From a virus (taxonomy: Duplodnaviria; Caudoviricetes), in the IMG/VR virus record IMGVR_UViG_3300046804_002082, positions 1-57,200 of that record: DNA of 57,200 nt; one strand, given 5' to 3'. A model generated the notes under the pieces. It saw only the letters and a list, made by a program, of their open reading frames with translations, made no database searches and had not been told where the DNA came from. Shown here piece by piece: positions 24,101 to 54,602 of the stretch (position 1 is its first letter; each line of letters begins with the position of its first letter). The translations under genes were made by a program, and so were the position numbers.

Positions 24101-25215
24101 TTGATAAAGATAGAAAACCTATTTATGAAGAATGGTATAAGTCTATGATTAATGCTTTACCTAAAAAATCTCCTACACCTCCATTAAGTGCAGTTGGTAC
24201 ACCATCAAATGGAGTTTCAGTTAGCGCTGTAGCAAACACAATTAATGCATCTGAAAAAGTTTCAAGTGCAGTGGCTAATATCTTTAATGCGTTTGGCGAT
24301 GAAATTACTGGTGTAGGAGATAAGGTTGCAGATAAGATAAATGTTATCCATAAAGCAATTGAGGCTAATCCTATTTATCAGAATGTAAAAGAGGTTGCGG
24401 CTAATCCTGATTTAATCCTAGCGGCTATTCAGAGAGAGATTGACAAGAGAGATGAATCAGGAACTGTATCTAAAAAGATTGTTGTTCCAAAGCAGGTTAC
24501 GCCTGAGTTTTCACTAACAGGTGGTAAGCCAATAGTAGCGTCTGATACGGTTAATTTGGGAAATATGCGAGGCTCAAATTCTGAATACTTAGCAACTTCG
24601 TCTATCACAGACTTGAATAAAGTTAATGTTGGTGAGCGTAATCGTGGGGATTATAAAGAGGGACAAGGGAATATAATTGCAAACTTTTTAGCACCATTCA
24701 CTAAGCCAGAAAACTTGAACAACAATGATATGTATGTTGGAATTAAAGATGGCAAATTGGTAACAGGGAATGGCTCAAAAGTTAAGGATGCCCAATCGGT
24801 GACTAAAACTCCTTTTGCTCAAGTTGTTGAAATTACAGACGAGTTAATTAAAAACCAGTCTTATTTGTTTCCGAAATTAAAGACTTTAAAAGAAGGTCAG
24901 GAAAATAAGCTAAATATTTCAGCAACTAGAGAAGGCAAAGGTGATGCGAACAACAAATTTGCAGGTGGAGCAACTATTATTGAGACGCCCGATGGCTCAC
25001 AAAAATATTTAGTAAGAGGCAGTTTAGACCAAGTTAAATCAGCATTTAATGATTTAAAAAAGAATACTAATAGTCCTTATTTAAATATGTATATATTAGA
25101 TAATGGTTCATTCTCTACGGGATTATTTACGGGAGATAAAAAATCTACCGAAGAAGAATTGAAGGCTTACGAGTCAAAAAATATTAATGGAGGACACGGA
25201 ATTTATTTAAAATAA
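15139..25215 (+). CDS. Giant polyvalent internal virion protein (zincin metallopeptidase motif, WCT-motif domain, LRR/solenoid region, LPD38-like region)
   Basis: 3358 aa. LAHEIVH...EEFLA, KWCTG...GDFY, LxxV repeats, and ARATLDYNRGG...YIPFLNVSLQ. Confidence 0.75.
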   Translation: MSKQQTRIVDLSEFGGAPSKTEAPKIVDLSEFTQKKNLNETPNADTGLFGGMFSTAGGSDKNEISKKFFNAMSYAKGLFSSDDSPEVKQPLTYGQQPEGGFRAVSTAIKTFVPQTIASVSAVAGGVLENIINDAKDVADFYSGTSDYSIGNFFTNLEKQAKIADETVKQKGNTVSTALSLEHQGHDHLKSSESIAAPLYDLAAEAQKSADVLFDVSQKQWGIKEENRNKSIFDLTAEGDYKDAFKIAGLGVARSMPQSIALAMTGGSAGVFAGAGISAGGAELAKEYSQTGDITGEDAFRAIGYGVGEGLSEMLFQGDLMAIKSLGKSIFNLTDDAVKASVKTLVKEEGKQVAKEKIARSFLDGGISKMLKGGLEEGVEEIAATVSNFAVDRILDGNISGADYNKLMKDAVDSFVIGAMSGGLMSGSAALATHNPLSKEQQQRVDKFMEVANNEELSQEVRDMAKSKADEIIKYDADRHYAEYTQLANLPLQDRIKAVAISNEIKTLEENKKEIKDVETISEIDKKIEEKSQEVKDIIDNHTLNLADEVINSNEAIDGKVAFSNETQLNVNPDTGYVFHFDSPNEVPAELKKIEPISSGVIAGRDKSVFRVAYTGQDLINAGLATQASEITPEQVSQASADVETTANTVQEILDKAPDTLGNIPSMFQEQEGKTIAQQIAEEYQKAKQDNSNPELVSQVESAITNSLTAPTMAAQPVIAPKPKRKRNVQTLRGMKPTEGVELTDNIVNDFTGVLGKMSRGTKQVLQNYVKALKSVRPEAKVFYYEDAVAMEKGLKNSGFSPSKAKSLASSSGGLFTTVNDGGEVIIHVNRQADLSKKGQDAGQQSNLILAHEIVHATLLELARTNPSEFKNMRDSLLTMLAKDEAANEEVKAFVERYSNQSEEVQAEEFLAQLGALLTRQKATLQRSTLDKIKLAIRQFLQKVAGKFRSKALMDLVDSEVFAETAKIEDTAQFLEGLGKSLREGTDINMKYIKNLVKGSKEYQAGLRYSVIENAPSIPQGMDANTLMDNDMVVEPENVKQSVDEGNWTDNAENRKRMTKYMSTIKGMTEDDIWLAKAIAYNENKGVKLYTLKDKESVIAALENQLNNIVQSLDNEIVGQYEFANEGTLWESNGGYLFTGWKPEYIANRIILFKNDLNTNEVLRWTEIRDNENYHKQEVGVIREMQKNALLANIKEFNGHNDFDPAFSYMLINSMIYNKYQVANEETGEIKVFKYKQNQLSSTDATYASLQYSVAKALYDSEKSRNSADEIGIQYQKTYMNMDKLNVQNSKFAKYIDKKSSTGEGYWLKFPKGDNPEVAYDLFEIAKTSHKYPAKWCTGSSDSTAASQLRGGDFYMFVDSKTGDARIAVKYNNDSIGEVRGLGEGQAILAKDSGIIEEISDTFKDGKSYESYSKTLNDTKKIAKEFFTKEEFETFQEKNTSGDSLLGNSNNFIKYIGDNFSVDDIARILIEEDRSYNQSDYFLQNIQGEINSYLKLILENKGESPYAIVHNFFTSPSNLGTINDVKYVIDYLSIDEDVNFENLIYAKNIGINDGELTANKLKTVNNLQIENGALYSKSLEIASDIDAREGDIIVPNLKKVSDLKIGLFGNGINDFSSLEQASRISININSNNVKFDFPKLISANRISFKGGTEIASKSEINLPSIDGKIKTLTLSGYNGSDVNVNINKNVVTEIENIIISDSIENELSINAQRADIREINVYEGQLNINLEDGANIKLIDGTGTVAINNVTENENFTTDIKTASLHKSAKLIFGENQTVSMDEVEMRNDSSIDGKVNFINTLRIYNPSITTLSVGQIEKLKVNAGMLMLRDNKYIDLLNINGATASISSERIGVAEGFSSQLLASNLQSVDGLLFQLNETSELFLPNLIKVNNRLTLSGKANSSKINLSKLNEATQLDIYDDKFELLSLKNAKIITLKSGTLEARQLQSTSIVTLEDGSDLYAPQLKNGYKLQSLYGEFNPNENNNRIFDENGGQTFPKQAEPSDVKSSLGDIGQAAREEHKRRTEKTAKQRVAEIYNNVFERNEEARQAFKKADMPFSMYSMYLKAGASPFAMKKFADAYFNIYGGLNEKQIHNLDSVIFLERVIAIDENFDNRGKKRPAHPDIIENNGTRRVVNRESAIAELDAYEKAFGKEYVDDLRARAKEYFNTFSEILKYKYDNGLISKETYELYKDYNYSPRKFIEHIVDVNGVPVNAYINRGIKLGAEEIKNITTGSTDLMLINSADLLKMAMISAENRVFTNRALKFIFEEGVTRNNNIVKDAKVVKLKDGTIKLDKDGVPVVKQKADEGFVYKTYRDNNGKAYTFQMRSDIAKQFDDSDISNNKETYKKILAWVSGAPILRNLAVTLNPFFGLVNPIIDLGTQVMFSNTYKGAGRGLLAQSFAATKEFVSITNAMIGMDLSASKVGKKFGLSESAKQGEIRQLMEEYGVYGGFMTTQSEVGQDANKLASALSYYGNVTEIAAKLSAYKFLKQTMLNDFAKENIDPATGESIEPNEKQMRDIMISAAYHARATLDYNRGGKWAKDMSQYIPFLNVSLQVKKVGGQYIVDNKADFIRKMADGIFVTAAITLANLLISDDDYEKDKRIKRDKVDKTIIMLPFLLENGERAYVALPTPSFAKVFFNAGQVMAEQIYYDAVGKVNPNEGSSVSKIIENNFSMMAREIKGTFMPKTIQATISYLANYDFWTQDRLTKDERMVASQQGYGNENIMSSLKLIAQGLDKLTDKEGIGYGGGAFTFSPEKLQKSMEVITTSPTYNGLANTAYWMLDNLFQAGHKVMLGKDIDEKLKSKFNTQTVMENIADTFGKGFGRLVRFTDPSKYNLPDFDANQDLKEEINLVDARLDTKKSIMYKDLMKIYDDSKEQKNAGEFIKKEVEAYRDKIKDPREYNYINSLGQLLIDRTKVQLGTNVDKYYMISTEAKDARAKAFAIWKNFGDIRGNEALLNDLKNIGIDQSVINQYRGILIQNNMIEVDKDRKPIYEEWYKSMINALPKKSPTPPLSAVGTPSNGVSVSAVANTINASEKVSSAVANIFNAFGDEITGVGDKVADKINVIHKAIEANPIYQNVKEVAANPDLILAAIQREIDKRDESGTVSKKIVVPKQVTPEFSLTGGKPIVASDTVNLGNMRGSNSEYLATSSITDLNKVNVGERNRGDYKEGQGNIIANFLAPFTKPENLNNNDMYVGIKDGKLVTGNGSKVKDAQSVTKTPFAQVVEITDELIKNQSYLFPKLKTLKEGQENKLNISATREGKGDANNKFAGGATIIETPDGSQKYLVRGSLDQVKSAFNDLKKNTNSPYLNMYILDNGSFSTGLFTGDKKSTEEELKAYESKNINGGHGIYLK

Positions 25216-37932: not shown

Positions 37933-38314
37933 CTGATAATTTGATTTTAAGGGCTGATAATACGTCGTCTAATGATTCACTAGGCTCGTCTGATTCTGAT
38001 TCATCCTCATCGCTTAAAAGCGCCATAAGCAATAGTTTAGACACAAGTTCTTCCATAGATTTTGGATTACGCTCTCGTCTAGCCGAAGCATCAACTCCGT
38101 CACGTTGACTATCTCGTATCTCTCTCCAATAATCTGCACCTTCGGGCGTCTTGGCGAAAAGAAAACTGCTGGATACAAACGTATCAAAGTCGTCAAATTC
38201 CTCTTTCAAGAACTCTTTAAAGTCGTCATTCTCTAATCTGCAATTAACAAAGTTGCTGATGAATTGTGATTGCTCAACCTCGTTAAGCATATCAAAATAT
38301 ATTTGTCCCGTCAT
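37925..38314 (-). CDS. Early acidic protein with F.F..TPEG..YW motif
   Basis: ORF track entry. Motif shared with 41299-41841. Confidence 0.65.
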   Translation of the reverse strand: MTGQIYFDMLNEVEQSQFISNFVNCRLENDDFKEFLKEEFDDFDTFVSSSFLFAKTPEGADYWREIRDSQRDGVDASARRERNPKSMEELVSKLLLMALLSDEDESESDEPSESLDDVLSALKIKLSDD

Positions 38315-38315
38315 A

Positions 38316-38543
38316 TTATTTATTAGTTCTTAATTGTTCGATTTGGTTTAAAAGTTTTTGTGAGTCAGCATTAGCCTTCTCTAATAGATTTTTATAAGCC
38401 TCGCTTAAACAATACAATTCAGATATCAACTCGTCTCTCAATTCCCACTCCTCCATTTCTGCATAGCATTCCATTTGCTCGTAGTCGATTGGGGATAAAG
38501 TACAATCCTTGATTGCATTTAAAATTTTTACTCGTGTACTCAT
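38316..38543 (-). CDS. Early hypothetical protein
   Basis: ATG 7 nt after a class B hairpin. Confidence 0.7.
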   Translation of the reverse strand: MSTRVKILNAIKDCTLSPIDYEQMECYAEMEEWELRDELISELYCLSEAYKNLLEKANADSQKLLNQIEQLRTNK

Positions 38544-38583
38544 TGTTTGAACGATTGCCTATACATCGTGAGGTTCTAGGTTA

Positions 38584-38829
38584 TTAAATAGAATGTGATG
38601 CAAAAGCTAAGTGAGCCATATCTTCGTAGTCATATTTCTTGGGATAATGAATCCGTTGCAAGTTATATGGGGTAGCGTCAAGACCATACTCGCAAGTGTA
38701 ACCGACTGCTCTTAATTCGTCAATCAATTCATTGCACCGCTCGTAAGAATATACATCGTCGGCATACCGCTCAATGATTTCAGTCACGTTTGCGGGCAAT
38801 AGTTCGGGGTATTCAAATAAGTCTTTCAT
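38584..38829 (-). CDS. Early hypothetical protein
   Basis: MKDLFEYPELLP...GYTCEYGLDA.PYNL motif. Confidence 0.7.
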   Translation of the reverse strand: MKDLFEYPELLPANVTEIIERYADDVYSYERCNELIDELRAVGYTCEYGLDATPYNLQRIHYPKKYDYEDMAHLAFASHSI

Positions 38830-38978
38830 TGTAATTGCATTAAAAGGATTTCGATATTATTAATAAGGTTTTCTTCTTCGGAAAAATCTTCCGCTACATA
38901 CTTTCTATCTTCTAAAAGAGTTCTCAACTCTTCTAGGTTCTCGCGAATTACATCGACGATTGCATCTTGTTTAGGCAT
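38826..38978 (-). CDS. 50-aa early protein
   Basis: Hand-translated MPKQDAIVDVIRENLEEL...MQLQ*, overlap-coupled on both sides. Confidence 0.55.
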   Translation of the reverse strand: MPKQDAIVDVIRENLEELRTLLEDRKYVAEDFSEEENLINNIEILLMQLQ

Positions 38979-39495
38979 CTTGTTGTTCTTTAATTAGTGC
39001 TTTTAGGAATGAGGAAACACTGCACGTAAAATGAGTCGATTCAATTAATGATTCGATTGAATCGTACGTAAATGAAGAATGCAGACCCATCTCATATTTA
39101 ATATTATGTTTGCATTCATAATTATATTCACCTACTCTCTTATTTGAATAATCTATAAATCCGTGCATCTTAATCATCTCTTCGCCTCTTATTCTATAAG
39201 ACAATGAATGACCATAATATCGTCCCGTCTCTTGCCACACGGGTTCTAATTCAAAACCTAACTCGTCGAAATAATCAGATAGCTTTTGCAAGTTACTTTC
39301 TATTTCTAGGCGTAACATTTTTACCCTAGCTTTTGCAACTTTATTCTGCTCATCACAAAAAGATTTGTCGGATTGCAACTCTTCTAGAATAGGTACTAGT
39401 GGGTTGCTTGATGATACCTTCGTAGTATTCATCTGCTTAAACTCTTCGATTAAAGAGTCAACAATTTTAGATTGGTTTGGGGTTAAATTTTTCAT
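38971..39495 (-). CDS. Early hypothetical protein
   Basis: ATG 12 nt after a class B hairpin. Confidence 0.7.
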   Translation of the reverse strand: MKNLTPNQSKIVDSLIEEFKQMNTTKVSSSNPLVPILEELQSDKSFCDEQNKVAKARVKMLRLEIESNLQKLSDYFDELGFELEPVWQETGRYYGHSLSYRIRGEEMIKMHGFIDYSNKRVGEYNYECKHNIKYEMGLHSSFTYDSIESLIESTHFTCSVSSFLKALIKEQQDA

Positions 39496-39538
39496 TTGGT
39501 TTGGTTAACGATTGCCTATACATCGTGAGGTTATTGGG

Positions 39539-39754
39539 TTAAACTTCTTCGCTATTTGTTAGAAACATAATTGATGTAAGCGTGGTATTATCATCTTCAT
39601 CGTATAGGTCTTCTTCTACCTCATACACAATCTCTTCATCTGAATCCCTATCGTATCTATAATAGATATGCACATTGCTTAAATCAAATTCCTTTTGAGT
39701 TTCCAGTAGGAATTCTAATAACTTTTTTGCAGTCAAAGGTTTTTTGTTTTTCAT
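39539..39754 (-). CDS. Early acidic protein
   Basis: Start reassigned to MKNKK, 7 nt after the hairpin. Confidence 0.7.
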   Translation of the reverse strand: MKNKKPLTAKKLLEFLLETQKEFDLSNVHIYYRYDRDSDEEIVYEVEEDLYDEDDNTTLTSIMFLTNSEEV

Positions 39755-39794
39755 AATACTGACGATTGACCTATACATCGTGAGGTTAAAGTGA

Positions 39795-39992
39795 TTAAAT
39801 AGTAAATTGCATAAAGTAGTTTATCATACAATCGTAAAGGCTCTCATATCCGTCATTAGAAGGCGACGCCAAGAAATCCTCATACAATGTAATTATCTCG
39901 CCGAAAGCTAAATCATATTCTAGTTCGACATCAATACGCTCATAGGCATAAGCCAACTGCGTGAACAAAAAGAAATCATAATCGTATTTCAT
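39795..39992 (-). CDS. Early acidic protein
   Basis: Start reassigned to MKYDY, 7 nt after the hairpin. Confidence 0.7.
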   Translation of the reverse strand: MKYDYDFFLFTQLAYAYERIDVELEYDLAFGEIITLYEDFLASPSNDGYESLYDCMINYFMQFTI

Positions 39993-40031
39993 AATACTGA
40001 CGATTGTCCTATACATCGTGAGGTTAAAGGT

Positions 40032-40181
40032 TTAATTAGTTAAATCGTAATAGCTGTCAGCATAAAAATTAGCTACGTTTATTAGCTTATCTACTAACTG
40101 CGGAACATCTAGTTCTTCTACTTTAATTGCATCGTCATCGTCTAAAAGATTTTTCAATGCTTCAATAAGTTGCTCTCTCAT
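40032..40181 (-). CDS. Early small protein
   Basis: Start reassigned to MREQL, 10 nt after the hairpin. Confidence 0.65.
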   Translation of the reverse strand: MREQLIEALKNLLDDDDAIKVEELDVPQLVDKLINVANFYADSYYDLTN

Positions 40182-40229
40182 TGTTTTATTAGCGATTGTC
40201 CTATACATCGTGAGGTTTTTAGTGATACC

Positions 40230-40237
40230 CAAATATA
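40230..40237 (-). promoter_or_regulatory. Bacteroidota sigma-A -7 element
   Basis: TATATTTG on the - strand at the boundary between class A and class B repeats. Confidence 0.65.
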
Positions 40238-40249
40238 GGGCGGTAAAAA

Positions 40250-40537
40250 TTATTCTGCTGAAATAGTAGACGAATCCGCTGATTGTGTAGACGAAATATC
40301 TTGGCTTGCTGAATTGTTGCTAGTGATATTATTTCGTCGTGCATAAGCCTTTGCCCAACCTAGTTGCGCTATTGTTAATTGCTCGTTAAACGTAGCGTAC
40401 TTTGCCATTTTGATAATCTTATTGTGTTCGGTATCGGCTTGGTACACATAGTTCTTTTGAGCGCATTCATAGACCGCTTTCATTAGGGCTTCGTTCTCTT
40501 TATAAATACGTGTTGATTCTTTATTAAATGTAGGCAT
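40250..40537 (-). CDS. Early hypothetical protein
   Basis: ATG 8 nt after a class A hairpin. Confidence 0.7.
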   Translation of the reverse strand: MPTFNKESTRIYKENEALMKAVYECAQKNYVYQADTEHNKIIKMAKYATFNEQLTIAQLGWAKAYARRNNITSNNSASQDISSTQSADSSTISAE

Positions 40538-40577
40538 ATTGTTAGGCGGTTTCCTTTACACCGCAAGGTTAAGGTTA

Positions 40578-40781
40578 TTAGTCGTTGTTAATCTGATTTT
40601 GTAATTTTTCTATCCAATGATTGGGTAGTTCTACGCAACTGATTACTATCTCATTTGCATAGCAATCAGCAATAGCCTCATCTTTACTGCCAAATATAAT
40701 AATGTCTCCCATTCCGTCTTGCAATGGATTGTCGTTTGCTTTATCATAAACAACAAAGTCGTATTCAGATAATTTTTTCAT
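40578..40781 (-). CDS. Early hypothetical protein
   Basis: ATG 8 nt after the hairpin. Confidence 0.7.
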   Translation of the reverse strand: MKKLSEYDFVVYDKANDNPLQDGMGDIIIFGSKDEAIADCYANEIVISCVELPNHWIEKLQNQINND

Positions 40782-40821
40782 AATCTTATGCGGTTGCCTC
40801 TACACCGCAAGGTTAAAATGA

Positions 40822-41247
40822 TTAGTAATTGTAAAGGTCTTCCCACCCGTCTACTGCTTTCGGTACGCTAGGCATCTCTCTTCTGTCCTCGTCGTAGTTG
40901 ATTATTAACTGCACTACCTCTTGGGTATTTGTTAGTCCCAATTTGTAATACTTATGAAATTCGTCAGCATCCATATTAGCAAAGTCAGAATGAGCGAATG
41001 AATGCAAATGATAGTAGTTCCACGTGCCGTCACAATCTCCGTCACAACCCGTATGCAAGAAGCCGTAAGTTGTTGACCCGTCTCTTATTATCTTGACAAA
41101 GTAATGAATACCTTCGCCACCCGTAATAATCGTATCAGTGAACTGAATGAGTTCCCCCCTTAATGATACGGGAACAAACAAATCTCTTTGATAATCGTGA
41201 ATATTCCAATTAACAAATTCTCCTAATCTCATTGCAAGATTTTTCAT
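40822..41247 (-). CDS. Early hypothetical protein
   Basis: Start reassigned to MKNLA, 10 nt after the hairpin. Confidence 0.7.
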   Translation of the reverse strand: MKNLAMRLGEFVNWNIHDYQRDLFVPVSLRGELIQFTDTIITGGEGIHYFVKIIRDGSTTYGFLHTGCDGDCDGTWNYYHLHSFAHSDFANMDADEFHKYYKLGLTNTQEVVQLIINYDEDRREMPSVPKAVDGWEDLYNY

Positions 41248-41298
41248 AATAGTAATAGCGGTTGACCTATCCACCGCAAGGCTAAAATGATTAGTGTT

Positions 41299-41841
41299 TT
41301 ATTTTCTACTAGCAATTGTTCGCCAATATGAGTGACCTTTCTTTGTGTTCTCCCAACTAAACGCTCCCGCAACAAACGGGTAAAGACTATCCTCTTTATT
41401 GCGCTCAATATAGTCGTTTGTATAGCCAACCCTATCCGCATTTAATTCGTCAACGAACTCAACCCACTCGTCATAGCTTAACAATTCTAGCACATCCTTT
41501 TGCAAGCAAGCTACCTCAATAGGGTATTTGGCACGCTCTATTTGTACTATATCGTTGTCTAATGAGCCGACCTCATTTAAGAAAGTTGCCTCTATTTTGA
41601 AGCCCTCAAACGTACCCTTAATATCAAGGTATTTGTCAGTCTCGCAACCGCCGTCACGACTTGTAAGGGTTAACGTATCGCTCATTAATAGCTTAGTAAA
41701 CATATCAATTCCGTTACCCTTTTTTAGGTAGAAAAACAAGTCAAGTTCTCCGCTAGACTTGACACTCAAATTGATTACGCTAGCCTCGTTTGGCTTCATC
41801 AATTCCACAAACTTTGTAAGGTTTTTTGTTGCTTGCAACAT
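41299..41841 (-). CDS. Early protein with C-terminal AF.W..T..G..YW motif
   Basis: Start reassigned to MLQAT, 11 nt after the hairpin. Confidence 0.7.
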   Translation of the reverse strand: MLQATKNLTKFVELMKPNEASVINLSVKSSGELDLFFYLKKGNGIDMFTKLLMSDTLTLTSRDGGCETDKYLDIKGTFEGFKIEATFLNEVGSLDNDIVQIERAKYPIEVACLQKDVLELLSYDEWVEFVDELNADRVGYTNDYIERNKEDSLYPFVAGAFSWENTKKGHSYWRTIASRK

Positions 41842-41883
41842 AAGATTAATATGCGGTTGACCTATACACCGCAAGGTTCTAGA

Positions 41884-42177
41884 TTAAAAATGAAAATCAA
41901 AATCAACTTCTTTGCCCTCTACTATATCTTCCTCTTTCCATACGTTTACCTTAAAGTCAACGCCCTTGTCCACTAGCCAAATCATAAGGCTTTTCTCTTC
42001 CATAGTCAACCTTTCTATTGACATAGTTTGTTCGGTAGAAAAATCCCTATTATTTGTGTACTCATAAAATCCAGTGTAGATTGTTTCACATTTCTCTTGA
42101 ATCCAATCTGCTTTAATCTTAAAGGTTTTCTCTCGGTACTCTCCTTTAAAAACGTAAGTGTATGATGTAATAATCAT
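41884..42177 (-). CDS. Early hypothetical protein
   Basis: Start reassigned to MIITS, 10 nt after a class C hairpin. Confidence 0.7.
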   Translation of the reverse strand: MIITSYTYVFKGEYREKTFKIKADWIQEKCETIYTGFYEYTNNRDFSTEQTMSIERLTMEEKSLMIWLVDKGVDFKVNVWKEEDIVEGKEVDFDFHF

Positions 42178-42187
42178 AAGGGTAAAA

Positions 42188-42212
42188 TTCGGTTTAGCGA
42201 CCACCGAAAAGC
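42188..42212 (-). repeat. Class C start-associated hairpin, copy 1
   Basis: + strand TTCGGT-TTAGCGACC-ACCGAA-AAGC, nearly identical to 45038-45063. Confidence 0.85.
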
Positions 42213-42236
42213 GTAGGTTTATATAATAATTAAACT

Positions 42237-42491
42237 TTAATCTGCTAGCGCCCAAAGTTCATAGACGTCGTCGTAGGTTAATCCGTACATCTCCGCAAGG
42301 CGTTCAAACAATCGCTCTCGCACTAAGCTATCCGTGACCTCTATATAGTCATAGACCTCTTTCTTTAAGCATAGCGTCCCGTAAAGACCTAGAAACGTAG
42401 CCGTCTCATTTAACTCCGCACCTAACTCGTCGGTCGGGAATGTCTTTGTGTAATACTCTTTGATATTATCCGTCATCAAAAATGTTAACAT
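42237..42491 (-). CDS. Early hypothetical protein
   Basis: PTDELG...DS.VRER.F..L motif. ATG 10 nt after the hairpin. Confidence 0.75.
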   Translation of the reverse strand: MLTFLMTDNIKEYYTKTFPTDELGAELNETATFLGLYGTLCLKKEVYDYIEVTDSLVRERLFERLAEMYGLTYDDVYELWALAD

Positions 42492-42533
42492 AGTTTTAGT
42501 GGCGGTTGCCTATACACCGCAAGGTTAAAGTGA

Positions 42534-42746
42534 TTAATATAATGTTATACTTTTAAGGTCTTTCTCGTTGATTATCGTGGTCACGATTGTGCATTTATGA
42601 CCATAAATCTTTTTGCGCTCTACCATAGCCTTTATAAAGTCTAGGTTTGCCGAATAGGTAGGCTTCCACCCTTCGATTCCGTTCCACGTATCATCACGTA
42701 GGTCTAGTTGAAAACCACGTTGGTTTACGATATGATATACTTTCAT
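42534..42746 (-). CDS. Early hypothetical protein
   Basis: ATG 10 nt after the hairpin. Confidence 0.7.
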   Translation of the reverse strand: MKVYHIVNQRGFQLDLRDDTWNGIEGWKPTYSANLDFIKAMVERKKIYGHKCTIVTTIINEKDLKSITLY

Positions 42747-42787
42747 AATACTAGTGGCGGTTGCCTATACACCGCAAGGTTAAAAGG

Positions 42788-43051
42788 TTAATTTAAAATT
42801 AATTTTACGTGATATGTATCTACGTCGCCGTATTCATCTAGGACATATTTCTGCCCCTTTACTAATAGCTTTTCGTCTATCGGTTTATTTTGCATTGATT
42901 CTAGCATATCATTTTGTGTTATACTAAACTCACGAAAATTCAATAAATTAGAATAAGCCATAGCTATAAAGTCCCCTCGCTCATTAAGATACCAATCCAA
43001 GAATTTTTCGCGGTCAATGAGCAATGTGTCTGTTAATTCATAAGTTCTCAT
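42788..43051 (-). CDS. Early hypothetical protein
   Basis: Start reassigned to MRTYE, 7 nt after the hairpin. Confidence 0.7.
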   Translation of the reverse strand: MRTYELTDTLLIDREKFLDWYLNERGDFIAMAYSNLLNFREFSITQNDMLESMQNKPIDEKLLVKGQKYVLDEYGDVDTYHVKLILN

Positions 43052-43106
43052 AATAATAGCGGTTGACCTACACACCGCAAGGTTTTAAGATTGTTGCTAG
43101 TGAAAA

Positions 43107-44069
43107 TTATTTGGCGGTCTCTAATATTAAAGCTACCGCCTCTTGTGACTTTTTGCTTGACTGCATAATCAAGTTCTTGTCGTCGTTGATTGCCTTAATC
43201 CACCCGTTAATATAGGCTTGACTATTTTTAAAGTCGTCAACCTTGCAATCAATTCCCGTGATAGCTTCTAGATAAAGCGCACCCAACTCCGCTACTAATT
43301 CCTCCTTTGAGTAATTCTCGCTACCGAAATTTGCCGTCGTGTCTAGTCGGTTAAGGCGTGACTTGTGTCCCGTGCTATGGATAGCCTCGTGAAAGAATAC
43401 CTTGTAATAATCCCCGCTTGACTGCCACTGCTTGTCCGTCTTTTCGGGCATTTGAATATAGTCCCCGCTAGGGCTATAAAACGCTTGTCCTTGCTTGCTA
43501 TGTTTAAGCGTGACTACACTAGACCACCCTTTTAATATAGCCTCCGCGCTAGCTACCGCCTCCAATTCGGTTGCCTCTTCTTCTACTAGATTGGGCGTGT
43601 CGTGAGGTAGGTTCGTTTGACTGATTGACCATACTTTCCACTGCTTCAAGTAGAAAGATTTGCGGGCTATTTTCTTGTCCGCTTCGGGTACTTTTGCTAG
43701 GGTAGGATAGTAGGTAGTTTTCCCGTCCTTGTCCACTGCATAGCTGATTTGCCACATAAAGATATCCGTCCCCTTTTCCCCCTTATTAATTAAGCCCTCA
43801 CATTTTTGGATATGGGCAAACGTGTACCACTTGTTGACCCAATTGTTTTCTAAGGCTATTGCCGAAAGAATAAATTGATTCCAACCTTTGTACGGGCGTC
43901 CATAAGCGGACAACGCTTGAAAGCTACCCGTCACGCCGTCCTTGAAAGGCTTAAACCACTGCAATCCCTTGTCTTTGAGACCCGCTATAACCTTGTCGTT
44001 AATTGAGTCAATGATTTGCGCTTGTGTTAATTTTGGTGCGCTTGCAAATGTTTTTTTAGCTACTGCCAT
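43107..44069 (-). CDS. ardC: ArdC-family antirestriction protein (ssDNA-binding domain plus zincin-like metallopeptidase domain)
   Basis: W.KPF, RPYKGWN, WYTF, KGEKG, AFYSP..D.I.MP, HEAIHSTGH..RLNR, YSKEELVAELGA, AYI.GW. Start MAVAK 11 nt after the hairpin. Confidence 0.92.
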   Translation of the reverse strand: MAVAKKTFASAPKLTQAQIIDSINDKVIAGLKDKGLQWFKPFKDGVTGSFQALSAYGRPYKGWNQFILSAIALENNWVNKWYTFAHIQKCEGLINKGEKGTDIFMWQISYAVDKDGKTTYYPTLAKVPEADKKIARKSFYLKQWKVWSISQTNLPHDTPNLVEEEATELEAVASAEAILKGWSSVVTLKHSKQGQAFYSPSGDYIQMPEKTDKQWQSSGDYYKVFFHEAIHSTGHKSRLNRLDTTANFGSENYSKEELVAELGALYLEAITGIDCKVDDFKNSQAYINGWIKAINDDKNLIMQSSKKSQEAVALILETAK

Positions 44070-44111
44070 AAGATTAATAAGCGGTTGACCTACCACCGCA
44101 AGGCTTAAAGA

Positions 44112-44405
44112 TTATTTGATTGTTTTTAATTCTACCGCGTTGGGCAACGTAGAAAGATATTCAACGTAGCCAACCTCATTTTCCGTAACGAAAGCCCAAT
44201 CGTCATTAATAAATGTTTCTAAGGCGCGACCCATAAAAAATGAAGGCTCGAAATCGTCAAGCGTGTAGGGTGATTTCGCTTCACCCGTCATAGATATATA
44301 ATAATTATTAAGCGCGTCAAGCATTTGCTCCTTGTTGTCAAAGCTAAAATGTAAAGGATGTCCGTCCCCTTTCATTCCTAAAATGTTAAAAATTGCGTAG
44401 TACAT
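44112..44405 (-). CDS. Early hypothetical protein
   Basis: ATG 7 nt after the hairpin. Confidence 0.7.
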   Translation of the reverse strand: MYYAIFNILGMKGDGHPLHFSFDNKEQMLDALNNYYISMTGEAKSPYTLDDFEPSFFMGRALETFINDDWAFVTENEVGYVEYLSTLPNAVELKTIK

Positions 44406-44443
44406 AACAAAGGCGGTTGACCAATTACCGCAAGGCTTTAAGA

Positions 44444-44521
44444 TTAAGATAATAAACTAGCAACGATAAGGGCTAGGGCAACCCGTGCCACTAGACCCAA
44501 CTGAAATTTTAAGTCCTCCAT
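44444..44521 (-). CDS. 25-aa hydrophobic peptide
   Basis: Hand-translated MEDLKFQLGLVARVALALIVASLLS*, fills the gap before the next hairpin. Confidence 0.5.
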   Translation of the reverse strand: MEDLKFQLGLVARVALALIVASLLS

Positions 44522-44522
44522 A

Positions 44523-44702
44523 TTACTTACCCTCCTCCACTGAAATACAACCACCTGCCGAAAAGATAGACCCAAACACTAAGAAAGCGAAGCGACCGCC
44601 TACGGGCGCATCTGCTACCCAAGCCAAGTCCCACGCCACAAAGGCGATAAGAAAGTAAAACACTACAAAAATCAAAGCGATAACTTTTACATAGATATTC
44701 AT
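44523..44702 (-). CDS. Early two-TM membrane protein
   Basis: Start MNIYV 8 nt after the hairpin. Two hydrophobic helices. Confidence 0.65.
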   Translation of the reverse strand: MNIYVKVIALIFVVFYFLIAFVAWDLAWVADAPVGGRFAFLVFGSIFSAGGCISVEEGK

Positions 44703-44741
44703 AATAATTCGCGGTTGACCTATCCACCGCAAGGCTAATGA

Positions 44742-45029
44742 TTATAATAATTCAGTTAATTTGTGCATATCAATTTCGCATTGAACGAATTCGTAAAGCG
44801 ACTGATAAGCTAGTTCGGTTATATTTGTGCAACCCCCGAAATCCGTTACTCCTAATGCCATAACAATAGCGAAGCAATCAGAATAATAGATACAAGCCGT
44901 GTCAATTTCTTGACTGATATAGTCTTGAATTTCGTCGTAATCAGTCATAAGATTAGTCTTTGACCCAATCAAGTCAATAATTTCTTTTTCTAGTGTTTCC
45001 ACAAAAAGAAAGGGATTAAATTTTTCCAT
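44742..45029 (-). CDS. First early gene, acidic protein
   Basis: Start MEKFN 8 nt after a class C hairpin. EID..CIYY.D...LAY..L motif. Confidence 0.7.
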   Translation of the reverse strand: MEKFNPFLFVETLEKEIIDLIGSKTNLMTDYDEIQDYISQEIDTACIYYSDCFAIVMALGVTDFGGCTNITELAYQSLYEFVQCEIDMHKLTELL

Positions 45030-45037
45030 AGGAAAAG

Positions 45038-45063
45038 TTCGGTTAAAGCGACAACCGAAAAGC
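45038..45063 (-). repeat. Class C start-associated hairpin, copy 2
   Basis: + strand TTCGGTT-AAAGCGAC-AACCGAA-AAGC. Confidence 0.85.
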
Positions 45064-45077
45064 AAAGTTGAAAAAAT

Positions 45078-45093
45078 TGTTTCACGTGGAACA
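45078..45093. promoter_or_regulatory. parS: parS (ParB/Spo0J-binding) site
   Basis: TGTTTCACGTGGAACA, a 15/16 match to the bacterial chromosomal parS palindrome TGTTTCACGTGAAACA. Confidence 0.85.
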
Positions 45094-45103
45094 TACCACG
45101 TTG

Positions 45104-45171
45104 CGACTAGATAGGGAAACGAACCCTACACTCACGGGACTAAGCCTAAGTGAGGCGACCAACGTCTAGCC
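45104..45171 (-). ncRNA. tRNA-like RNA lacking a canonical D-arm
   Basis: GGCTAGA/TCTAGTC 7-bp acceptor-like stem, TAGGG-TTCGTTT-CCCTA T-arm and CTCAC/GTGAG middle arm. Confidence 0.6.
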
Positions 45172-45546
45172 GTTAAGCGTAAACTATCACTAGCGGTAGC
45201 GGTTCAAAAGGGCTAAACCCAATTTATGTACATCCGTTTCATTGCACCCGTTGACCCTACGGGGGTGGGAATTTGATAACTCTGTTTTTTCAGAAAAGCC
45301 GATAAGTCAAAGAACTATTTAAGCATACTTTCGTCCGTTCGGTCGGGGCTATTGACAAACCGCGTTTAGCGCGGTACAAGTACTTATGTTTAACGTCTAG
45401 CCCTCCCCTAGTGAGCCTATCCTTTGCACCACTATTGCAGTGGCTTCGCATCTCCCCCTAATGAGCCAATTCGGGCGTTCGGGGTATATAGCACGCGCCT
45501 CGTTCGGCGGGCTTGTCTCGTGAGCCGTTGCTCCCGTTTGACATTA

Positions 45547-45554
45547 CAAACCTA
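45547..45554 (-). promoter_or_regulatory. Probable major early promoter (-7 element)
   Basis: TAGGTTTG on the - strand, with TTGACA about 17 nt upstream, at the edge of the GC-rich leader. Confidence 0.6.
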
Positions 45555-45677
45555 CACAATTTTATATACCCTTGTCAAGTTTTCTTTGAAAAATGCAATG
45601 AATTAGTTCAAATTAGTTGAAAGTTCTTTAAATAATACAATTAGCATAGTAATAACCCTTTCGCCCTATACTGAATT

Positions 45678-45765
45678 CGCGCTACACGCACGATACGCGA
45701 CACGCACGCTACGCGCAACACGCGACACGTACACGCATCACACGCGCGACGCACACGCGCTACAC
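45678..45765. repeat. ACGC/ACAC-rich low-complexity degenerate repeat tract
   Basis: cgcgctacacgcacgatacgcgacacgcacgctacgcgcaacacgcgacacg..., mostly alternating purine-pyrimidine, in the divergent intergenic region. Confidence 0.8.
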
Positions 45766-46061
45766 TATGAGCAATTTTAGACCCCCGATTTTGCGTCTAA
45801 TGAACTTTCTTTACTAGGGCGGATAGATTGGACATTTTAGGGGGTAAAGTCGCTTAAATCAAAGATATGACCCCTTAAATCGAATGCTTTGTTTTGTACA
45901 ATTTTTGTCTAGGAAAAATCCTATATGAATTGTAGGGTCGTTGGGGGGTTGATTTTTGGGGGTTATTGTTGGGCGGGTAGACCCTCTTGCCGACCTATAC
46001 GCCTAGCAATTTATTTTTCTATCCTGACTTGTGGGGGTTGTTGTTTCTTGACGGGGTCAAT

Positions 46062-46150
46062 CAGGATAACTCAGGACAGAATTGTTAGGAGGGTATTGTA
46101 TAGGGGTTATTCGTCGGTAATATATTGCCGAACAGGATAACTCAGGACAG
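46062..46150 (+). repeat. 18-bp direct repeat pair
   Basis: CAGGATAACTCAGGACAG at 46062-46079 and 46133-46150. Confidence 0.85.
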
Positions 46151-46301
46151 GGAATTTTGGAATTTTGATTATGAAAAGAGACCCCACCCCGTTCGGAATT
46201 TGCGGTTTGTCATTGGTTTGGCGACCCGTCCCGTTTTATATATAACCTTCTGAAAACACCTACGCGCTACATAAAAAATTGCAACATTGGCGACTAATCA
46301 T

Positions 46302-46309
46302 TACCTTTG
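46302..46309 (+). promoter_or_regulatory. Bacteroidota sigma-A -7 element
   Basis: TACCTTTG before the GroES-like gene. Confidence 0.65.
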
Positions 46310-46335
46310 GACACATAAACCAAACGATATATAAA

Positions 46336-46977
46336 ATGTTACAATACAACATCAGGCAAGCACCTGCAAATACGGTCATTGTAGAGGTTGGTAAAACGCT
46401 AGAAGATACAGTTACTTTTGGCAGTATGACGCTACACATAGACCCTGAATTTAACCCTACACATCACGCAAGAATCTTTGGACGAGTAGTCGCTGTACCA
46501 GACGGTAGAACGTGGGACGAAGAGAACAATACAATTAACGACGAGGTTGAGGTAGGCGACCTTATATACTTCCATTACTTAGTAACTAGCAATGAAGCAA
46601 ACTGTATCTACGGCAACTATTATAAAGTACCTTATTATTGGATTTTTTGTAGCGTTAGGAACGGTAATATATTACCTGTTGGAGGCTGGACTTTATGCGA
46701 GCCGACGGTTGAGCAGGAATATAATACAGTTGAAGTTGAAGGTAAGAAAATGGAAGCGACTTTTAGTGCATCAGGATTAGTGACATCTGTGTTTAAAACA
46801 CCATCTGTTGACGTAGCAAAGTTATCATATATTGGTAAGCCAGTAGGTGACAATTATGAGTGCGAAGCAAAGGTAGGTGCAACAGTAGTTTTAGCTAAAA
46901 ACTCCAACTTTCTTAACAAAATTGAAGGTAAAGACTACTATACTGTTAAGCAACAATACATCTTAGGAGTTAAATAA
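46336..46977 (+). CDS. Tandem GroES-like co-chaperonin
   Basis: Two GroES-like halves: G.VVAVP...VEVGD.IYF and P.GG..L.EP...SASGLV...VG..V...IEGKDYYTVK...IL. Confidence 0.7.
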   Translation: MLQYNIRQAPANTVIVEVGKTLEDTVTFGSMTLHIDPEFNPTHHARIFGRVVAVPDGRTWDEENNTINDEVEVGDLIYFHYLVTSNEANCIYGNYYKVPYYWIFCSVRNGNILPVGGWTLCEPTVEQEYNTVEVEGKKMEATFSASGLVTSVFKTPSVDVAKLSYIGKPVGDNYECEAKVGATVVLAKNSNFLNKIEGKDYYTVKQQYILGVK

Positions 46978-53270: not shown

Positions 53271-54602
53271 ATGGCTATTGGAGCAGGTAATATCGACCGT
53301 ACCTTTTTGTCTACGGTATCGTTTACAAACACGTTAGAGCAACGTGAAATTTTAAAGGACGTTCTTGACATCTATGATGAAGAGGCGTCAATGTTGGACA
53401 TCTTAGATTGGACAGGTAAAGCTAAGGCTACTGCTCAAACTGAGTATTTTACAGTACAAAACAACTTCTTGTATGCAACTGCTACAGTTAAGACCCCAGG
53501 GACTTCTGCGGGTTCTGCTGGTGCTTCTGTTGACATCACTTGCGTTGGAGCTACTTCTGTTAAGCCAGTAGTTGGTGAGTTAATCTTGTTTGCTAACGGT
53601 GTTGTAGGTTATGTATCTGCTGTTTCTGCTGCTACTGACTTTGTTATCACTGTTAAGCCAGTTAACTCTGCTGATGCTATCCCTGCTGCTACAACAGGTT
53701 CTAAGTTGTCATTTATGTCTAACGCATACGCGGAAGGAACTGGTTCTAACCAAATGCGTAAGTCTGATTTGATTAAGCGTTCTAACAAGTTGCAAATCTT
53801 CAAGACTAAGACTTCTATCACTGATATCGCTTACGGTTCTAAAATCGAAGTTGAATTCAAAGGTAAGCCTTACTACTTCTTGAAGCAGCAGCACGATGCA
53901 TATTTGAAGCACCGTATGGACATCTTGTATTCAATCTTGTTCGGACGTGAGTCAGCAGGTTTGACAGATGCTTCAGGTAACGCTATCAATACAACTCGCG
54001 GTTTGCGTGACACTATCGTTAATGCTGGTGGTATTTCATCTTCAGTTGCAACTGGTGGCACTTTGTTATTGTCTGATATCGCTGCATTGTCTCGTTTGAT
54101 GGATGCTAACCGTTGCCCAGCAGAATATCAATTGTGGGCTGGTGCTGACTTTGATAACGCTTTTGATACTCAAATCACTGGTGCTACTCAATTCATCAAC
54201 GGAGCTGTAAACTACGCTTCTTACGGTGGTAAGAAAGAGGTTGCTATCGCATTAGGCGTTCAATCTTTAGCTGCTTACGGACGTACTTTCCACAAGAAGC
54301 GTCTTAACGCATTATCTCACCCACAAGTAACTTCAGTAGGTGGTACAACTACTTTCACAAAAGAGGCGTACTTAGTTCCTGCTGGAAAGATTAAGGTTGA
54401 GCAAGGCGGTGGTCAAGTAGACCGTATGATGGTTCGTTACTTAGAGATGCCAGAAGGCTTGAACTCTCGTTTCCGCGAGAAGATGCTTGGTGGTTTAGCT
54501 CCAGTTCCAACTAGCGATACTGATACTTTAGATATCGTTTACACTTCAATCGAAGGTTTGGAAACTGTAGGTAACGAGCATTTCGTTAAATACTCTATCT
54601 AA
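53271..54602 (+). CDS. Major capsid protein
   Basis: 443 aa with strongly biased codon usage. AYAEGT, N..QIFK and TTRGL motifs. Followed by a terminator. Confidence 0.88.
   Translation: MAIGAGNIDRTFLSTVSFTNTLEQREILKDVLDIYDEEASMLDILDWTGKAKATAQTEYFTVQNNFLYATATVKTPGTSAGSAGASVDITCVGATSVKPVVGELILFANGVVGYVSAVSAATDFVITVKPVNSADAIPAATTGSKLSFMSNAYAEGTGSNQMRKSDLIKRSNKLQIFKTKTSITDIAYGSKIEVEFKGKPYYFLKQQHDAYLKHRMDILYSILFGRESAGLTDASGNAINTTRGLRDTIVNAGGISSSVATGGTLLLSDIAALSRLMDANRCPAEYQLWAGADFDNAFDTQITGATQFINGAVNYASYGGKKEVAIALGVQSLAAYGRTFHKKRLNALSHPQVTSVGGTTTFTKEAYLVPAGKIKVEQGGGQVDRMMVRYLEMPEGLNSRFREKMLGGLAPVPTSDTDTLDIVYTSIEGLETVGNEHFVKYSI

Follow-up and report, generated by a model that had tools for sequence, protein, structure and literature searches.

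A start-associated hairpin repeated through the early genes of a phage is shared by unrelated Bacteroidota viruses

Introduction

Start-associated sequences (SAS) and extended start-associated sequences (ESAS) occur in Cluster K mycobacteriophages in many copies, all in one orientation and a few nucleotides before the starts of non-structural genes (PMC3203893). They show a strong bias for ATG, precede unrelated gene families and have no known function, a role in translation having been proposed; at 13 bp, the SAS is unstructured and includes a Shine-Dalgarno core, and according to its authors the inverted repeats of the extended form do not support RNA pairing (PMC3203893). T4-type phages carry the promoter early stem-loop (PeSL), a repeated intergenic stem-loop found in a hyperplastic region ahead of early genes that are small orphans (PMC2839356; PMC4122927), which is about 100 bp long and combines a strong host sigma-70 promoter with a stable G/C stem that terminates transcription (PMC2839356). 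Phage N4 has three hairpin promoters that are read as single-stranded DNA by its own polymerase (PMC13434306). Here, we analyze an array of 17 small hairpin elements, each a few nucleotides ahead of a start codon, in the early module of a virus of the class Caudoviricetes (IMG/VR record IMGVR_UViG_3300046804_002082). The whole 57,200-nt stretch is called the window hereafter.

The closest described thing to this element is the SAS of Cluster K, with which it shares placement, not sequence, structure or breadth. Like the SAS, it is multi-copy, kept in one orientation (82/82 copies in its own clade), located a few nucleotides before ATG (80/82 copies at 5–13 nt) and followed by diverse genes; unlike the SAS, it is a covarying hairpin without a Shine-Dalgarno core, and it is common to unrelated virus families instead of one cluster. 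The 13-bp SAS consensus is absent here, the consensus of the element being different and its spacers A/U-rich. The element resembles PeSL in flanking orphan genes of a variable region where the differences between relatives are bounded by the motif, but it has no host promoter motif (16/17 spacers), no terminator tail and a weak 5-bp stem, and its conserved part is the loop and the flank. An earlier reading of this stretch from its sequence alone (the original prediction) had named PeSL and the mycobacteriophage sequences as analogues, and they are indeed among the nearest described systems, neither matching in full. The likeness to N4 lies in small hairpins before early genes of a podovirus with a virion protein of more than 3000 residues; the differences are the 17 copies, the lack of any polymerase found, pairing on the sense strand and the presence of the element in microviruses that have no polymerase. 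The RNase III sites of T7 are likewise structured and intercistronic, in a long early transcript that the host polymerase makes. Those sites are long imperfect duplexes with no conserved loop and no set spacing from a start codon, whereas the stem described here, at 5 bp, is too short for that enzyme.

No paper describing the motif was found in the literature search, supplementary files, which may hold motif lists, being outside its scope. As read from sequence, the element is probably an undescribed signal for the host gene-expression machinery. It is a phage start-associated repeat, and there is a fair chance that it is more than that, namely an element carried by viruses for loading ribosomes and restricted to a single bacterial phylum. 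The array of 17 copies is the densest example among those seen in this analysis.

Results

Seventeen elements precede start codons in the early array

The early module lies on the minus strand and runs leftward from an untranslated region of about 1.1 kb (45.1–46.3 kb). Its first 6.7 kb comprise about 20 small genes, nearly all of them orphans, and an ArdC-like anti-restriction gene (phrog_7245). By reading the minus strand and by pattern searches, we found all 17 start-linked elements that had been predicted, in the same places and classes (A, 10 copies; B, 5 copies; C, 2 copies). All are on the minus strand, in the interval 38551 to 45064, and about 25–32 nt long; the distance from the end of each to an ATG is 7–12 nt, which is the spacing originally proposed.

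Element 1: 45039..45064, minus strand, class C, UCGGU/ACCGA stem, loop UGUCGCUUUA, spacer 9 nt, ATG 45029; E 0.0044, folding energy (dG) -8.9 kcal/mol, z -3.4
Element 2: 44711..44736, minus strand, class A, spacer 8 nt, ATG 44702
Element 3: 44413..44437, minus strand, class A, loop AAUUGGUCA, spacer 7 nt, ATG 44405
Element 4: 44081..44105, minus strand, class A, spacer 11 nt, ATG 44069 (ArdC-like gene)
Element 5: 43059..43084, minus strand, class A, spacer 7 nt, ATG 43051
Element 6: 42757..42781, minus strand, class A, spacer 10 nt, ATG 42746
Element 7: 42502..42526, minus strand, class A, spacer 10 nt, ATG 42491
Element 8: 42189..42213, minus strand, class C, spacer 11 nt, ATG 42177; E 0.0002
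Element 9: 41853..41878, minus strand, class A, spacer 11 nt, ATG 41841
Element 10: 41258..41283, minus strand, class A, spacer 10 nt, ATG 41247
Element 11: 40790..40814, minus strand, class A, spacer 8 nt, ATG 40781
Element 12: 40546..40570, minus strand, class A, spacer 8 nt, ATG 40537
Element 13: 40192..40217, minus strand, class B, outer pair A.C, spacer 10 nt, ATG 40181
Element 14: 40000..40025, minus strand, class B, spacer 7 nt, ATG 39992
Element 15: 39762..39787, minus strand, class B, spacer 7 nt, ATG 39754
Element 16: 39508..39532, minus strand, class B, spacer 12 nt, ATG 39495
Element 17: 38551..38575, minus strand, class B, spacer 7 nt, ATG 38543

The anatomy of the element is a conserved 5' flank, AACCUY, followed by a covarying 5-bp stem that encloses a conserved loop, GUAUAGG(U)CA. 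Flank and loop are the same in classes A and B and the stem alone differs, by G-C to A-U swaps at stem pairs 1 and 4, one class B copy (40192–40211) having A.C at the outer pair. The class C hairpins (TCGGT..ACCGA; 45039–45058 and 42189–42207) have a different loop. The pattern CCTY-RCGRT-loop-AYCGY returned the 15 class A and B copies, all on the minus strand (38551–44734); across the whole 57.2-kb record it gave 15 reverse matches, no forward match, none in controls and no copy outside the array, and its strict form had 0 matches in 100 shuffles. A single further RCGRT..AYCGY hairpin, at 54406–54425, has neither flank nor loop. Three array genes are without an element (38978, 38829 and 44521), and they overlap the previous stop codon or start 1–2 nt after it, in agreement with the proposal that genes coupled by overlap lack it. 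It had also been proposed that the element contains no TAnnTTTG promoter; the motif is inside none of the copies, and the only one nearby is just upstream of element 13 (40230–40237).

Stem covariation points to a helix in the sense strand

Along the line suggested with the original prediction, a covariance model was built from the 17 window copies and searched against the window and 34 relatives. The relatives are the closest of 80 loci obtained by a terminase search of viral contigs (L009–L042), with 47–93% identity in the large terminase subunit (TerL). At E up to 1 the search returned 82 matches, every one of them on the strand opposite TerL, and it added stem pairs that include UCGGU/ACCGA, GUGGU/ACCAC, UUGGU/ACCAA, CCUGU/ACAGG and CCGAU/AUCGG. 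In this clade set, 98.2% of stem cells are paired vs 87.2% in shuffles, and 47 cells hold a double change vs 9.8 in shuffles, a number reached by 0/500 shuffles. A broad set of 145 matches (130 distinct copies) has 95.8% of stem cells paired vs 82.7% in shuffles, 110 double-change cells vs 30.0 and 13 extra pair types vs 9.3 (0/500 shuffles), and pairing is only 15.8–52.7% when the partner is slid by 1–3 columns; both alignments are fitted to the model, and related copies in them are not independent. The claim that the stem is under selection, which had been based on classes A and B, is upheld by this strong covariation.

Wobble pairs are distributed unevenly between the strands. The 130 distinct copies hold 25 G.U cells in mRNA sense vs 4 A.C cells, the latter equivalent to wobbles on the opposite strand, from 24 vs 4 source loci (binomial p = 1e-4), and the stem class AUGGU/ACCGU holds a U.G across many gene contexts. 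Because G.U wobbles favour the mRNA-sense strand, this asymmetry fits a helix that forms in the sense strand, most simply in the transcript, and we infer that the element is read as RNA. The element is also a discrete unit: a free-loop scan with one stem fixed gave 40 unique sites, of which 24 have the AGG loop, and the ACCTT flank is present in 24/24 of these and in 0/16 of the sites without that loop, with no intermediate forms. A pseudoknot between CCU of the flank and AGG of the loop is sterically conceivable; it was set aside, as both triplets are invariant and intermediates are lacking, which leaves covariation uninformative.

Paired changes in the two arms could also reflect symmetric half-sites in double-stranded DNA, as in an operator for a dimeric protein, or a pure recombination site. 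Inverted 5-bp arms read by a dimer would co-change too, and homology blocks between relatives stop at elements (see below). However, the loop between the arms is anywhere from 7 to 11 nt long, nine or more different arm pairs exist, which is too many for the specificity of a single protein, G.U is tolerated on one strand only, and orientation and ATG spacing are strict. No recombinase was found beside the arrays, no search aimed at one having been made. Taken together, we regard a DNA site of either kind as very improbable.

The element is tied to start codons across unrelated genes

The link to start codons that was noticed in the window extends to the clade, where ATG is 5–13 nt past the stem in 80/82 copies, most often at 8 or 10 nt; of the two outliers one, in L011, has GTG 9 nt past the stem. 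The distance from the upstream stop codon is looser, ranging from 7 to 92 nt with a median of 15 in the 77/82 copies for which it was obtained (35/77 at 11–14 nt), and 5/82 copies have no upstream open reading frame (ORF) within 120 nt. In 12 arrays, the element precedes 66/83 genes whose gap is 30 nt or longer. Clustering of the 127 downstream ORFs yields 81 clusters, of which 53 are singletons, and because the ORFs span so many clusters the element is, judging by this diversity, a general signal and not the passenger of one gene. The spacer between stem and AUG is A/U-rich. A GTG or ATG at the stem-loop junction of classes A and B, in frame in some copies, was considered as the true start and rejected because loop length and spacer vary and many spacers contain stops.

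The main rival to a role in translation is an RNA processing or stability signal, in which a host ribonuclease or RNA-binding protein would read the flank and loop. The polycistronic transcript would be cut at the element, or the hairpin would shield the downstream 5' end, each cistron becoming its own mRNA with a short leader. The RNA-level evidence (covariation, wobble strand) is the same for this reading, the element is intercistronic and often at the short distance from the previous stop noted above, and in a capybara microvirus a TAnnTTTG is so close that the transcript would start at the flank. A distant relative (L035, TerL 47%) supports it in spirit, with tRNA-like minihelices at equivalent places that resemble substrates of tRNA-processing enzymes. 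Nevertheless, the distance to ATG is far tighter than that to the upstream stop, a copy for each uncoupled gene exceeds what stabilization needs, and the stems, above all those of class B (-4.6 kcal/mol), are weaker than would be expected of a hairpin that protects a 5' end. We consider processing or stability rather unlikely.

Unrelated Bacteroidota viruses share the element

This phage is not alone in having the element, which is widespread and common to unrelated Bacteroidota viruses. A scan of viral contigs for the flank, five free bases and the loop covered at least 114 stretches with at least 122 matches; among the matches listed, 45 have 5/5 arm bases paired and 28 have four, where about one is expected by chance according to our own arithmetic, and ATG is at 5–13 nt in 39 of those 45. 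The same pattern gave 120 matches in bacterial genome contigs, mostly chance, with 10 fully paired and 6 with four pairs. Nearly all paired bacterial matches with listed titles are in metagenome-assembled genome (MAG) contigs of Bacteroidales, Prevotella or Bacteroidaceae, and two are in contigs labelled Lachnospiraceae and Acutalibacteraceae. Within the family of a Flagellimonas genome the element was found in 0/121 genomes, and within that of a Bacteroides MAG in 3/121 (E up to 0.001, strict filters). Mimicry of CRISPR (clustered regularly interspaced short palindromic repeats) repeats was rejected, as no genome stretch has more than one match.

A 33-nt copy is 100% identical over 28–29 nt to sequences of two capybara microviruses and also matches a porcine microvirus, the crAss-like Kolpuevirus 'frurule' (host Bacteroides cellulosilyticus) and cr50_1, with a weak match to two pig-faeces Microviridae (E = 4). 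In a 6-kb capybara microvirus the element lies between the stop of the capsid gene (2253) and the next ATG (2302), and in a crAss-like phage of Bacteroides it ends 8 nt ahead of a gene. These two viruses have one copy each, a 327-kb viral contig has nine and a provirus three. Orientation and ATG spacing are the same in gut Microviridae, crAss-like phages, the 327-kb contig, the provirus and Bacteroidales MAG contigs. Three copies in the 327-kb contig are 26–31 nt downstream of TAnnTTTG motifs, and for this reason would lie inside the 5' leader of ordinary host-made transcripts.

This distribution bears on the proposal that the element belongs to a system for host-takeover genes. Its placement in the early module agrees with that proposal, and an early, host-takeover role is reasonable for the array genes because they are small, nearly all orphans, and accompanied by the ArdC-like gene; as a description of the element it is too narrow, since unrelated Bacteroidota viruses, including Microviridae, share it. 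Because a 6-kb microvirus has no room for a reader of its own, the reader is probably a conserved host component.

The same viruses bear on whether the element is the site of a phage-encoded regulator, a translational repressor or endoribonuclease that would shut off early genes in the manner of T4 RegA or RegB, with classes A and B marking two temporal groups. In the phage the element is restricted to the early module, the order C, A, B is the same in the window and L009–L011, a promoter-like motif stands ahead of the first class B copy in 3/6 loci, and hairpins bound by proteins usually combine, as here, a conserved loop with a free stem. Single copies in microviruses of five or six genes argue against such a regulator. 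Moreover, Pfam and PHROG scans of 10 of the ~20 array proteins gave zero matches over threshold or curated cut-off, and hence no RNA-binding or nuclease family among these 10, and with loop and flank identical in classes A and B only the stem could separate two readers. A phage-encoded regulator is therefore an improbable reader.

Searches for promoters, terminators, known RNAs and a phage polymerase

Searched with Rfam 15, the whole window has 0 matches at gathering score, and the interval 38000–46400 gives only matches at E 1.3 to 6.3 to unrelated eukaryotic or viral families. With no host-type promoter inside the element either, the view that it belongs to no known RNA family or promoter class stands. 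TAnnTTTG is in or adjoining just 1/17 spacers, and it occurs within 80 nt upstream of 5/82 real copies vs 4/105 chance matches. Sigma-70-type hexamer pairs are not enriched (34 vs 30.7 expected); terminator-like sites number 9 vs 7.5 expected, with elements 1 and 4 the only ones flagged and no terminator tail. The promoter-like features noted in and around the array are as follows.

Candidate host-type early promoter: 45547..45578, minus strand; TTG, 21 nt, TAGGTTTG; predicted, with the first array gene ~500 nt downstream
Promoter-like motif TATATTTG: 40230..40237, minus strand; directly upstream of the first class B element (element 13)
Antisense hexamer pairs, each of TTGACC and a -10-like hexamer: 41262–41291, 41857–41885, 43063–43091, 44417–44444 and 44715–44742, plus strand

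The candidate at 45547..45578 was recognized by what we take to be the consensus of Bacteroidota promoters. The motif TATATTTG and its context are kept in the window, L010 and L011, which are the 3/6 loci mentioned above. Read antisense, the element and the preceding stop region form a sigma-70-like pair starting with TTGACC in five copies; an antisense promoter was rejected, given a host that does not follow the sigma-70 consensus and overall counts equal to those of shuffles.

An N4-type system, in which the elements would be DNA hairpin promoters for a virion-carried RNA polymerase, has a conceivable enzyme in a 3358-residue protein encoded by a giant ORF among the structural genes (15139–25215, plus strand), given that N4 early genes use single-stranded DNA hairpin promoters and a polymerase of about 3500 residues (PMC13434306). 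However, this protein, which has HExxH at residue 851, has no match in Pfam, PHROG or PDB-sequence searches and no polymerase motif by simple patterns, and the same searches found no phage RNA polymerase, although remote homology could lie below their reach. Its residues 2180–3000 resemble LPD38 domains of polyvalent proteins in language-model features, which is a lead only. Wobbles are on the sense and not the template strand (25 vs 4), microviruses have the element, elements of another phage are downstream of ordinary host promoters, and transcription starting after the hairpin would leave the mRNA with hardly any leader. An N4-type promoter is thus scarcely credible. In Elemovirus, the counterpart of the giant ORF has 3694 residues and is annotated as structural; the Elemovirus early region is without such hairpins, and no polymerase is annotated.

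Elements bound homology blocks that may be exchanged as cassettes

In relatives at 89–93% TerL identity most array genes have no homologue and some shared genes are reordered, showing that neither content nor order is fixed. Nucleotide homology blocks end within a few nucleotides of elements, and the blocks 39528–39787 against L009 and 40193–40546 against L010 are each bounded by two elements. Stems are uniform within a genome segment. Because blocks end at elements, stems are segment-uniform and the C-A-B order is kept, the comparison supports copying and exchange of cassettes via the elements, as expected from the proposal that they provide homology for cassette gain and loss.

Separately, L012, which has no hairpins, carries clusters of 22–23 nt direct repeats beginning TGATACTATAGTAGCA at L012:99–175 and 9214–9300; the clusters are 9 kb apart and flank its early region.

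Discussion

Bacteroidota choose start codons without Shine-Dalgarno pairing. In this setting we favour, as a tentative first choice somewhat short of even, the reading of the element as a translation-initiation signal. Starting at ordinary Bacteroidota promoters at ~45.55 kb and ~40.23 kb, the host polymerase would transcribe the early genes into one or two long RNAs. Every early gene whose translation is uncoupled from that of its neighbour would have its own copy of a cis-acting RNA hairpin in the spacer, composed of single-stranded AACCUY, a 5-bp stem of any sequence and the loop GUAUAGG(U)CA, with an A/U-rich spacer of about 8–10 nt between hairpin and AUG. The small ribosomal subunit, or a factor loading it, would read the hairpin, which would occupy the position of the Shine-Dalgarno duplex of other bacteria and fix the start codon. 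As a side effect, the repeated copies would serve as patches of homology for swaps of early-gene cassettes. Translation is preferred because the hairpin ends at the position of that duplex, the spacer is A/U-rich and every uncoupled cistron has a copy of its own.

Several observations weigh against a signal for initiation. Middle and late genes of the same phage begin without the element, and the clade members L012–L016 (75–77% TerL identity) have no copy, so it is not required for initiation in the host. We found no convincing conserved complementarity between 16S rRNA and the element. In the free-loop scan, 4/24 clear copies have no ATG within 20 nt. Conservation of flank and loop in the broad set is partly by construction, as that set was gathered largely with a pattern fixing both, and 19/25 wobbles come from one stem class (AUGGU/ACCGU), so that independent events are fewer than 25 and the count is inflated by kin copies. 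Stability is unremarkable, with folding energies of -4.6 to -8.9 kcal/mol and z scores of -0.3 to -1.6 for 5/6 folded copies; since it is not convincing alone, the case for a hairpin rests on comparison. With regard to 16S rRNA, one apparent match was noted and discarded: the class A flank and 5' arm (11 nt, e.g. 41862–41878, minus strand) are an exact complement of the Flagellimonas 16S (L326, nt ~1050–1065), probably by chance because other stem classes lose it.

A broader version of the translation reading is possible but doubtful. Bacteroidota viruses, from 6-kb single-stranded DNA microviruses to crAss-like and jumbo phages, may share a portable hairpin that loads ribosomes and has no use in host genes. 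This hairpin would stand in for the Shine-Dalgarno sequence where the anti-Shine-Dalgarno tail is hidden and allow ribosome capture at any internal cistron, AACCUY and the AGG loop being held by the 30S subunit or a ribosomal protein. For start choice without Shine-Dalgarno pairing and phage competition for ribosomes in Bacteroidota, the element offers a small, testable handle. It is also a possible expression part for engineering Bacteroides and Flavobacterium, and a possible marker that would assign uncultured viral contigs to Bacteroidota hosts and indicate gene starts in them.

Other features of the record

The window is an entire IMG/VR virus record of 57.2 kb with 36% G+C, about 90% complete. 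Among its gene products are a terminase, a portal, virion proteins, a DnaB-type helicase, an exonuclease and a replication initiator. Its nearest named relatives via terminase are Flavobacterium (Elemovirus) and Cellulophaga phages at ~33% identity, and a blastn search with the whole region as query returned no named phage. Late genes have TAnnTTTG motifs upstream and A-rich leaders without Shine-Dalgarno sequences, a combination that we take to be the Bacteroidota pattern.

Two regions carry tRNA-like structures. One is in the untranslated leader upstream of element 1. The other, in L035:1070–4420 (on the locus minus strand), is repeated before several early genes at ~20 nt from their ATG.

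tRNA-like fold: 45104..45172, minus strand; 8-bp acceptor-like stem and T-arm-like hairpin

The L035 minihelices have a 7-bp acceptor-like stem and a T-arm with a UUCGAUU loop, and their stems covary between copies. ARAGORN called neither the fold at 45104..45172 nor any of the minihelices as a tRNA.

G/C-rich imperfect tandem repeats with periods of 11–22, together with a run of ~18 nt that occurs twice, lie in the untranslated region that separates the divergent early and packaging modules (window 45678–45765 and 45940–45978; 46070–46160), which may be an origin or a packaging site. Within the array, a 25-codon hydrophobic ORF at 44444–44521 (minus strand) begins 2 nt past the previous stop with GGAGGAGGG ahead of it, the sole Shine-Dalgarno-like run seen in the array.

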